This document shows, piece after piece, positions 24,001 through 27,000 of a DNA stretch of 64,000 bases. Position 1 is the first letter of the stretch, and the number at the start of each line of letters is the position of its first letter. Made by a program: the position numbers. Where the stretch lies: the NCBI RefSeq assembly GCF_055900595.2, contig NZ_CM148325.1; one strand, 5' to 3'.

Positions 24001-27000
24001 GTTGTAATGGATGTGAGGGTATTTCTGTGTGCAAGGAGCAGAAGGAGAAACAGAAGCAGCACATTTCCTGTGGCATTCTTCTCAGTGTATCCGCATGCAA
24101 TTGTGGTTATCACAGAAATAACAAAAAAGAATAAAAACAATAAAATCCGGGGTGTGTCGCCCGGACAAAACAGTTTTCTGATATTCATCGGAGTATATCG
24201 ACAACATTATTATGAAGAGAACAGGATAATAAAAATCAGAAATTATCTGTAAAACAGATAACAGACAACCCTGCAGCAATAGACTGCAGGGTGTTTCTGT
24301 TTAATTGCAGAAGATATACAATTATATTAATTACAGAATATTCGTGATTATCTCTCGGGAACAGTGTTGTCAGAAGTTATAAGTCACACCAAGCATGATG
24401 TCATGACTTTTAACATCAACTTCTGACTTATATTTATCGCCCCACTCGTCCTTGTAACTCACACTGCTGTCACCTGCATCAAGATAGCGATAGCTGAGGT
24501 CCAGAGCGATATCCGGGGTTACGTCATAGCGGACACCCGCGCCAAGGTTCCATGCGAAGTTGTCAGCAGAGCCTGAACGTGACAACGATTCGCGACCACT
24601 GCTTCCGTACTCATAATCCCAGGTACTGATACCGGTTGTTTTCTGGTGAATTCTGGCGTAGCCAATCCCTGCAGATATCCAAGGTGTGAATGCGCTGTCA
24701 TTCCGGAAGTCATAGTACGCATTCAGCATTAGTGTGTTGACTGACACCTCATTCTTCAGGTCATCACGCCAGTAACCACCTGACCAACTGTCTTTATCTA
24801 CGTTATACTTCGAATCAGCTTTTCCACGAGCGTAAAACTCCAGTTCTGTACGAACCGGAATACTGAACTGCGGATAAAAATCATAACCAGCCGCGATACC
24901 ACCACTGAATACCGTATCATGGTCATCGCCGCCTTTATACTTTGACGTTTCTTCCTCATCTCCTGACAGGAAACGCTGGTCTGAAAGTGACACCACAGAG
25001 GTACCGGCTTTACCGGTCAGATAAAAACCGCTTTTACCTTCCTCAGCACCTGCATTTGCTGCAAATACACAGGCTGCGGCCACCACTGAAACAGCAAAAA
25101 CCTTTTTCATTTCAATTATCTCCGTTATTGCTCCGTTGCTGCAAGCAGTACTCAGTGCATTTTAAAACCCGCCATGCTATAGCCTCAATCGAATAAAATC
25201 GATCGAATCGATCGATGATATCGATCGTCATTAACCAGAAATTTTTATCGTATTCAGTCAGCACAGACACAACAAATGCATGCCATGCAGGCAGCCATGC
25301 CCCGTCGCGACAGATGGTAGCAGTGGGCTGGCGAAGAGCAGAATTAATAAAATTTGTTTATTCTGTCAGGAGATAAGGTGTCACCTGTTCATGAACACAA
25401 TTAAGGAAGAGACATACATGAGCTGACTGGCAGTCCAGAGTGCATGCGGTTACAAGCCGGAAAGGTGAACCGGTATAACCAGTGAGCAGAGTTTGTGAAG
25501 GGGGGATATAAAAAAGCCCACTGCATGGCTGCGGGTAAAGAGTCAGTTATTTCCGGCGTTTTTCAAGGTAGTTGTCGCCTGATGTAATAAAATTACGTTA
25601 TGCCGCTTCTTTTTCTGGATTCAGATAAACTGCCTGAATGAGTTCCCAGTCACGCAACTGTTTGCTCCAGCGCTCAGGATGACGCTTGCGAGCTTCGCGA
25701 TAAACTTTTTTTCTGGCTTCCAGTATTTGTGCATCAATTCCGCGATGGCGTTCATCCGGAGTAACATACTTAATACCGCTGTGCTTGTGTTCCAGGTTGT
25801 ACCATTACGTGAACTTGCTTAACCAACTTCTGGCTTCATCTATGGTTCGAAAACCATTCTCCGGCCACCATGAACAATACTTAATCGTCCGGAAGAGCGA
25901 TTCGGAATAAAGAAGTGTTACTGGCAGTTCTTTCATCGCATCAGTGAAAACCAGCAGGGCACTGCTCACCAGAGCAACACAGGAAAGTGAACCCGAACAA
26001 AAGTTCCTGTACCATTTTCTCCCAGCAGACGTGAGGCTTGTTCCAGTGACGCTGGTATACGTCCCAGCCGGACATCAAGTGCGCCGATGGCTATTGCCTG
26101 AAATCGCATCGTACAGCAAATCACCAACAGGACACCGACAGACATTAAAGGTAACCCCCTGTAATCCAGTAGTTCCGACAGCCAGCGGTCATTTAGGGAG
26201 TCAGAAAACCAATCGCCAGAATCGTGCCCGGAAAGGCATAACCCAGCGACGCCCCTCTCATCACACCGCGCCTGAACAGTGGCATAGCGTTGAGGAATTC
26301 CGGGCATTCCAGACTACGAGCAGACTGACAAAAATTACGACAAAGCGTTGAAGGAAGCCAGCGCGCGGACTGACAGGACTTTACCATAAAAACACAGGCT
26401 AACCGCGCCTGCGTTTTTAATGACGGATAAACAGAATCAGGTGCCGATTATGCCGCCGTCGGCTTTTACGATAACGACAGTTGAGGAGCGCGGACGACCA
26501 GCCTTATCGCCGTCAGGCCAGCTTGATACTGCCGTCGGATGCTGCGGATCGCTAAGCCCTTCGCTTGGCTCGCCAGGGTGCTGGATGTTAATAAACAGCG
26601 TCCGGTTATCCGGAGTGAACGCGATGCCGGTGATTTCGCAGCCGCGCGGGCCGGTCAGGAAGCGGCGGAACTCATTGGTACCGGGGATCGTCGCCACCAT
26701 CTGGTTGTTGCCCATGCCTTTGTAATCTTTACTATTGATGGTTGATGACGACACGTCGGTCTGGATCCATAGCACGCCGCGGTGATCGAAGCTCAGGCCA
26801 TCGGCGCTGCCGAATTCCGCCCCCTTCATGCTGCCTTTGGTTTCCGGTTTGTCCGTATCGGTGCGACCGCCCATCACAAGAATATCCCAGGCAAACTGCA
26901 GCGCGGTCGGGTCGCCGTTATGCTCCAGCCAGTGAATGATGTGGCCGTAAACGTTTTTGGCGCGCGGGTTGGCCGCATCCACTGGCGCTTTTCCTTCCGT

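Follow-up and report, generated by a model that had tools for sequence, protein, structure and literature searches.

A conserved std-like GATC box as a candidate Dam-sensitive switch upstream of Hra/Tia-family outer membrane protein genes in Escherichia coli

The std fimbrial locus of Salmonella carries an upstream activating sequence (UAS) with three GATC sites at -242, -229 and -220 (PMC6735912, PMC2328253), published as acGATCa-N6-tcGATCgt-atcGATCta (PMC2328253). The LysR-type regulator HdfR binds this UAS only in its unmethylated form, loses binding upon methylation or upon GATC-2/GATC-3 mutation, and shields GATC-2 and GATC-3 from Dam; the sites are unmethylated in ON cells and methylated in OFF cells (PMC6735912, PMC2328253). 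Here we describe a box of closely similar layout in E. coli DNA, located in a 64,000-nucleotide stretch of contig NZ_CM148325.1 (NCBI RefSeq assembly GCF_055900595.2), referred to below as the window. The 40-nt box contains three GATC sites and lies upstream of the promoter predicted for a gene of the Hra/Hek/Tia family of outer membrane proteins (OMPs), on an island inserted at a tRNA-Phe gene (17078-17153). The box is conserved in the family, keeps a fixed distance to a conserved -10 element, and matches operators proven to be Dam-sensitive. Comparison of these sequences suggests that surface proteins of the Hra/Tia family are probably switched ON and OFF epigenetically.

The GATC cluster and its match to the std UAS

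The original prediction placed three GATC sites at 25201, 25210 and 25223, within a repeated tract upstream of an outer membrane protein gene on the minus strand. All three are found at exactly these positions (25201-25204, 25210-25213 and 25223-25226), embedded in a repeated ATCGAT/CGATCGAT tract. They lie 91-116 nt 5' of the ATG (25110, minus) of the open reading frame (ORF) 24370..25110, whose product matches Pfam OMP_b-brl (E=7.6e-22) and carries the RefSeq label 'outer membrane protein'. No other GATC triple in the window is as tight: the cluster spans 22, the runner-up 59. The nearest GATCs outside the cluster are at 22609 and 26547, leaving 3.9 kb otherwise free of the motif (22613-26546). 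GATC is depleted across the window—165 occurrences against 232.6 expected from dinucleotide shuffles, with 100 of 100 shuffles at or above the observed count—and the depletion also holds for islands of this type. For three sites within the 3934-bp GATC-free stretch, itself picked post hoc, the conditional probability is about 9e-5. Of simulations that scatter 165 GATCs uniformly over 64 kb, 22% have at least one triple as tight as 22 bp. Clustering over the whole window is therefore non-significant, and the case rests on conservation rather than on clustering.

Read on the gene strand, the sites (25226 -> 25213 -> 25204) are spaced 13 + 9, which is the std-type spacing. The std sequence used for comparison was recovered from a metagenome contig bearing both stdA and stdB. 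Aligned without gaps, the box in the window and the std UAS are identical at 31/40 positions, and at 19/28 positions outside the GATC bases. The second-best match to the std UAS in the window reaches 23/40, and the maximum found in 100 random 64-kb sequences is 26/40. A search of the std UAS against all E. coli genomes returned the promoters of the Hra/Tia family as its sole matches, with an E-value of 0.3 in 28 Gb that is weak when taken alone. The closest relative of the box is the operator of the std/HdfR system, which the original prediction did not name.

The box is followed by a predicted promoter. A promoter scan independently selects TTGAGG-18-TAAAAT at 25188..25159, the predicted -35 element beginning 12 nt beyond the end of the box. 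The position of the -35 relative to the box is ungapped across the family alignment. The -10 is near-invariant: four variants have TAGAAT, and Yokenella has TAAAAT. We infer a transcription start near 25152, which would put the box at about -50 to -75. The weak -35 and the 18-nt spacer fit an activator-dependent promoter.

Conservation, natural variants and portability of the box

We aligned upstream regions of family members found in different contexts: on pheV islands, and next to papG, subAB, atoS, an H-NS paralogue and integrase fragments. A common order is kept on the gene strand: CGATAA, about 17 nucleotides, GATCGAT-N4-TCGATCGAT-TCGATCGA, a spacer of fixed length, a weak -35, an 18-nt spacer and TTTTAAAAT. 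Conservation in the upstream regions is highest in the box and the -10, even between paralogues whose genes are no more than 67-72% identical; the flanks do not align. All three aligned GATC positions are retained in 14/17 non-std variants, a set that comprises the E. coli variants and Yokenella. Using a query that carries the box, we detect it in 1498 of 5426 complete E. coli genomes (about 28%), and the OMP family itself in 1812 of them.

Several lineages depart from the common arrangement. The 181.1-type lineage lacks GATC-2 and the EC361-type lineage lacks GATC-3. In the WP8/3059-type (74 complete genomes; L005 2530-2656, L008) all three sites are lost, through GAAC, a 4-bp CGAT deletion and GTTC, and the remaining promoter is retained; in strain 3059 the OMP gene is a pseudogene with an internal stop. 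The Ecol517-type (L014 2268-2407) has a 9-bp insertion, ATGATCACA, between GATC-2 and GATC-3, which adds a fourth GATC and alters the spacing. A gene for an H-NS paralogue lies just upstream in this type, on the opposite strand. Judged from their sequences, the GATC-altered variants look like candidate locked or retuned states, and the WP8/3059-type may be a locked or decaying switch.

Two further contexts separate the box from the OMP gene. In a wider host scan of one genome per species, Yokenella regensburgei has the exact box, a CGATAA box of its own and a TAAAAT -10; the box and the -10 are 35 nt apart (36 nt in tia-type promoters). Here the box precedes two unrelated genes for small secreted proteins, and the locus shares only the box and promoter with E. 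coli, without any cassette end. The region in strain ATCC 49455 (L020 4181-4860) places the box, the CGATAA motif and the -10 ahead of signal-peptide proteins of 154 and 120 aa, neither of which has an NCBIfam match. The ORF downstream of these genes, which we take to be DUF932-like, and its surroundings presumably form a genomic island. E. coli of the ERP001/S5-type carries a gene for a 122-aa predicted membrane protein inserted before the OMP gene, and it is this gene that follows the box, the promoter and a tia-like leader. ERP001 (L022 1155-1960) and S5 (L007) represent the commonest hra allele class (97% tier), and in this type the OMP gene itself retains just the -35/-10 part, without the box. 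Since the box precedes other genes in Yokenella and in ERP001/S5, it travels with the promoter and not with the OMP gene.

Yokenella is the sole genuine new context returned by the other-host scan; another match is a coding repeat in a GC-rich metagenome-assembled genome (MAG). An E. coli-type tia promoter and gene on a contig of a 'Bacteroidetes bacterium' MAG (L018) point to contamination or mis-binning, and the same box on a 454-bp, 0.76x contig assigned to Mesorhizobium (L017) is likewise likely E. coli contamination or mis-binning. Matches among plasmids come from three records, each 1-5 Mb long and apparently a chromosome filed as a plasmid.

A tentative extension, which we rate as somewhat doubtful, is that a std-type three-GATC LysR operator and a weak promoter form a portable epigenetic promoter cassette that has spread by recombination across Enterobacteriaceae. 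Its cargo would comprise the std fimbriae of Salmonella, the modules of Hra/Hek/Tia and phosphoethanolamine (PEtN) transferase genes of E. coli, the 122-aa membrane protein and the secreted proteins of Yokenella. The cassette would confer Dam-dependent bistability on landing, and lineages that lose the GATCs, such as the 74-genome WP8/3059-type, would become evolutionarily locked. On this view hra and tia, widely used virulence markers of extraintestinal pathogenic (ExPEC) and enterotoxigenic (ETEC) E. coli, would be phase-variable, and HdfR would gain its first clear regulon outside std.

The CGATAA element (ACGATAAAAATT) lies 14 nt upstream of GATC-1 and is absent from std; Yokenella has the CGATAA motif twice. 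The element appears to resemble the high-affinity H-NS motif TCGATAAATT. It could be a silencing nucleation site or a further regulator contact.

Table 1. Features of the OMP locus and its upstream region (positions in the window)
Feature	Position	Strand	Remarks
Conserved ACGATAAAAATT ('CGATAA') box	25240..25251	-	column conservation 0.83 across 17 non-std sequences
Conserved 40-nt GATC box AATGACGATCGATATCATCGATCGATTCGATCGATTTTAT, std-UAS-like putative operator	25193..25232	-	best-conserved stretch of the family upstream regions
GATC-1, promoter-distal Dam site	25223..25226	-	kept in 17/18 aligned promoter variants (std and Yokenella counted)
GATC-2, central Dam site, 13 bp from GATC-1	25210..25213	-	counterpart of std GATC-2; missing in 181.1-type and WP8-type
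GATC-3, promoter-proximal Dam site, 9 bp from GATC-2	25201..25204	-	counterpart of std GATC-3; missing in EC361-type and WP8-type
OxyR/LysR-type half-site ATCGATATCATCGAT (T-N11-A dyad), bounded by GATC-1 and GATC-2	25211..25225	-	8/10 to ATAGxTxxxAxCTAT
Second, overlapping half-site ATCGATTCGATCGAT, begins in GATC-2 and includes GATC-3	25198..25212	-	8/10
Predicted -35 TTGAGG (TTTACC in tia-type promoters), 18-nt spacer	25183..25188	-	promoter scan
Predicted -10 TAAAAT, inside near-invariant TTTTAAAAT	25159..25164	-	promoter scan
Hra/Hek/Tia-family 8-stranded beta-barrel OMP (adhesin/invasin family), 246 aa	24370..25110	-	Shine-Dalgarno sequence GGAGAT 25118-25123
PEtN transferase, CptA/EptA-like, 499 aa	22689..24188	-	constant downstream partner of the OMP gene

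A putative Dam-sensitive operator and its rivals

We put the chances at about even that the box is a Dam-sensitive LysR-type operator, about 50-75 nt 5' of the start of a weak sigma-70 promoter, which makes expression of the OMP gene bistable. The promoter under this conserved and portable operator would drive the Hra/Tia-family OMP gene and perhaps also the PEtN transferase gene behind it. A LysR-type regulator would bind the unmethylated box and activate transcription from -65/-45, the canonical position. Methylation of the GATCs by Dam would exclude the regulator, and the bound regulator would in turn keep Dam off the box. After replication, the competition between regulator and Dam, possibly with SeqA acting on the hemimethylated cluster, would divide a clone into lineages that inherit either the ON state (unmethylated, bound) or the OFF state (methylated). 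HdfR is the favoured candidate for the binding protein because the box is nearly the std UAS. The suggestion in the original prediction of a Dam-dependent ON/OFF switch thereby gains a conserved cis-element that matches the std UAS and the OxyR half-site of agn43 and gtr; methylation sensitivity, and phase variation itself, we infer.

Several observations weigh against this proposal. The clustering statistic of the whole window is not significant (P about 0.22), and lineages have lost one or all of the GATCs, so that the sites are not indispensable. The std UAS needs both StdE and StdF and acts from >200 bp, and tblastn of the window and the other 25 loci searched finds no homologue of either protein. 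No similar box is present in the upstream regions of K-12 gltBD and flhDC, which are reported HdfR targets; this absence is uninformative, and leaves no independent support from an HdfR motif. The full OxyR consensus score of 14/20 is equalled at three other loci of the window, and the GATCs could be by-products of ATCGAT palindromes read by a protein indifferent to methylation. In the literature searched, which did not extend to the core Hra1, Hek and std papers, so that a prior description is possible, we found no link of Hra, Hek or Tia to Dam, OxyR, HdfR or phase variation. The same literature yielded no description of how the Hra1/Hek/Tia family is regulated, recent reviews of Dam switches do not have the Hra/Tia family among their listed loci, and the main text of a preprint on the UTI89 dam transcriptome does not mention the OMP gene.

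The best placed of the alternatives, though we regard it as unlikely, keeps the Dam-sensitive switch and replaces HdfR with OxyR, which would occupy the half-site and a weaker neighbour, activate from about -66/-44, and be excluded by methylation. Together with its flanking bases (G-ATCGATATCATCGAT-C, 25226..25210), the half-site bounded by GATC-1 and GATC-2 matches OxyR at 8/10 and has exactly the form GATCGxTxxxAxCGATC of the agn43 half-site and of OxyR(A)/(C) in P22 gtr. The std box itself fits OxyR at only 6/10 by hand count, which places the window box nearer than std to the OxyR sites and favours OxyR as the binder. The half-site centres near -66 and -44 resemble those of OBS_C (-75) and OBS_D (-43) of opvAB. 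In the full 37-nt OxyR register of two half-sites 22 bp apart, the best placement (25234..25198) scores 14/20 and the next 13/20, similar to the agn43 site, which we count by hand as 6+8. The full scan cannot discriminate, however, because the three loci that tie at 14/20 are unrelated. The weaker half-site of the pair scores 5-6/10 in the window and 4-5/10 in tia-type promoters (hand count), and the highest overall identity of the box is to the std UAS, which is bound by HdfR.

It is likewise improbable, in our estimate, that a regulator or a nucleoid protein such as H-NS reads the ATCGAT/TCGATCGA palindromes regardless of methylation, in which case the GATCs would be incidental and always methylated, and expression would be graded. 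The repeated unit is indeed ATCGAT, with GATC only as an overlapping by-product, and ATCGAT-like units are still present in the WP8-type, which has no GATC at all. The conserved CGATAA box upstream, with its apparent likeness to an H-NS motif, and the moderately AT-rich composition of the island (42% GC upstream of the OMP gene) are also in keeping with such a protein. Against it stands the retention of all three aligned GATCs in 14/17 non-std variants despite the depletion of the motif (165 against 233 expected). Methylation sensitivity is proven for the near-identical std box, and three proven Dam switches have a LysR-type half-site framed by GATCs 13 bp apart.

A structural role of the tract is very improbable, whether as a weak intrinsic terminator or insulator for transcription from upstream, as a recombinase or integrase site at the edge of the mobile OMP-PEtN cassette, or as a slipped-strand repeat. 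A terminator scan marks 25216..25198 as an 8-bp stem followed by a T-run, but predicted folds vary from homologue to homologue and do not outperform those of shuffled sequences (z = -1.2, +0.25, -1.0, -0.7), and we reject the intrinsic terminator. In many loci the genes upstream of the tract are also encoded on the other strand. Homology between loci starts no more than about 50-100 bp from the box, and integrase fragments are close by in several of them; the Yokenella locus, however, shares only the box and promoter and not the cassette end. The WP8 variant differs by one CGAT unit, and tract indels occur only between deep lineages. Slipped-strand variation is rejected, as the tract has 2-3 tetranucleotide units and the promoters listed at >=99% identity (53-genome band) align over the full 230 bases in one piece, with no difference in repeat number. 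A functionless chance product of a low-complexity tract is hardly credible: 22% of random 64-kb sequences at the GATC density of the window would contain a triple within 22 bp, but the conservation of the box across diverged paralogues and genera, at a fixed distance to the promoter, effectively refutes it.

If the box is a Dam-sensitive operator of the OMP gene, clonal cultures would be mixtures of expressing and non-expressing lineages, affecting the reading of adhesion and invasion assays, of vaccine-antigen choices and of knockout phenotypes. The family would make a fourth well-defined group of Dam-dependent bistable enterobacterial loci, carried by roughly one in four E. coli genomes. The poorly understood HdfR (or else OxyR) would be tied to surface variation in E. 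coli. Natural variants that have lost GATCs would serve as ready-made locked alleles.

The island locus compared with known switches

Hra1, Hek, Tia and their relatives are adhesins, invasins and autoaggregation factors, and serve as typing markers in ExPEC, avian pathogenic (APEC), ETEC, enteroaggregative (EAEC) and Shiga toxin-producing (STEC) E. coli. The OMP of the window is of this type: a Tia homologue of about 25 kDa with a signal peptide and an 8-stranded beta-barrel. Its gene shares 66-72% nucleotide identity over the full length with genes annotated as tia, through which the family placement is made. Identity to a large set of RefSeq 'outer membrane protein' genes is 83-100%, and these genes are paired with the same PEtN transferase in every locus examined. 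Across the Hra/Tia family, the transferase gene lies 3' of the OMP gene in nearly every locus examined, and is sometimes truncated. The two genes are possibly co-transcribed in the window; this is uncertain because a hairpin (24268-24292) and a 10/12 promoter-like site (24253..24226, minus) lie in the 181-bp spacer between them.

The tRNA-Phe gene at the island border is assigned to pheV by its position on the yqgA side. It is followed by an integrase, a 1171-aa helicase-like protein, the PEtN transferase, the 246-aa OMP gene and insertion sequence (IS) remnants. The 1171-aa protein (19065-22580, +) adjoins the island integrase and is labelled 'AAA domain-containing protein' in RefSeq. Inspection by eye reveals a helicase-like P-loop, GPPGTGKT, and a C-terminal HxK nuclease motif of the phospholipase D (PLD) type, and by these motifs it may be an anti-phage defence gene.

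At pap, two GATCs about 100 bp apart lie within two sets of Lrp sites, and the local regulators PapI and PapB take part. Pap would share with the proposed switch the Dam-dependent ON/OFF control of an adhesin, and tia is found directly 3' of papG in some strains. A pap/Lrp model is rejected on architecture, as all three GATCs of the box fit into 26 bp, with no further GATC for 1.3 kb on one side and 2.6 kb on the other. Annotation of the neighbourhood includes only IS/integrase remnants, the PEtN transferase and the helicase; no search was aimed at PapI or PapB. The likeness to pap and agn43 drawn in the original prediction holds for the GATC-flanked OxyR half-site, and fails for the pap/Lrp architecture and for the position of the agn43 sites, which are downstream of the start and serve repression.

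In agn43 (flu), as here, three GATCs stand in a ATCGATCG context, and an OxyR half-site sits between two GATCs 13 bp apart (G-ATCGTTTATATCGAT-C in K-12 agn43 against G-ATCGATATCATCGAT-C here). In both cases the product is an autoaggregating surface adhesin encoded on an island acquired by horizontal transfer. The spacing is 19 + 13 in agn43 and 13 + 9 in the window. According to PMC2328253, which cites Waldron 2002 and Wallecha 2002 on this point, the agn43 sites are 3' of the start and OxyR represses. The box of the window is instead upstream of the -35, implying activation. With this activator geometry the dam phenotype would be opposite to that of agn43: a dam mutant is expected to be ON, not OFF.

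The gtr locus of Salmonella/P22 has GATC pairs 13 bp apart that bracket OxyR half-sites A and C. In gtr and opvAB the half-sites are upstream of the -35, adjoin it and have an activating role, as proposed for the box. Both control genes of lipopolysaccharide (surface) modification, and the partner gene in the window is a PEtN transferase. They differ from the window in having 3-4 half-sites and four GATCs with alternative occupancy (AB vs BC; AC vs BD), whereas the window has one compact box, and we find no second full site that matches well.

The std UAS, the closest relative of the box, is located >200 bp from its start and works with the operon-encoded StdE and StdF, whereas the box of the window abuts a predicted promoter, at about -50 to -75. 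The cargo differs as well: a beta-barrel OMP and a PEtN transferase in place of fimbriae. In both, three GATCs occupy 25-26 bp, are spaced 13 + 9 and face the downstream gene in the same way. Both also have the TCGATCG..TCGATC core that HdfR requires at GATC-2 and GATC-3, and the flanking TTAA..ACGATC and ATTTT. Like std, the box precedes a horizontally acquired adhesin locus.

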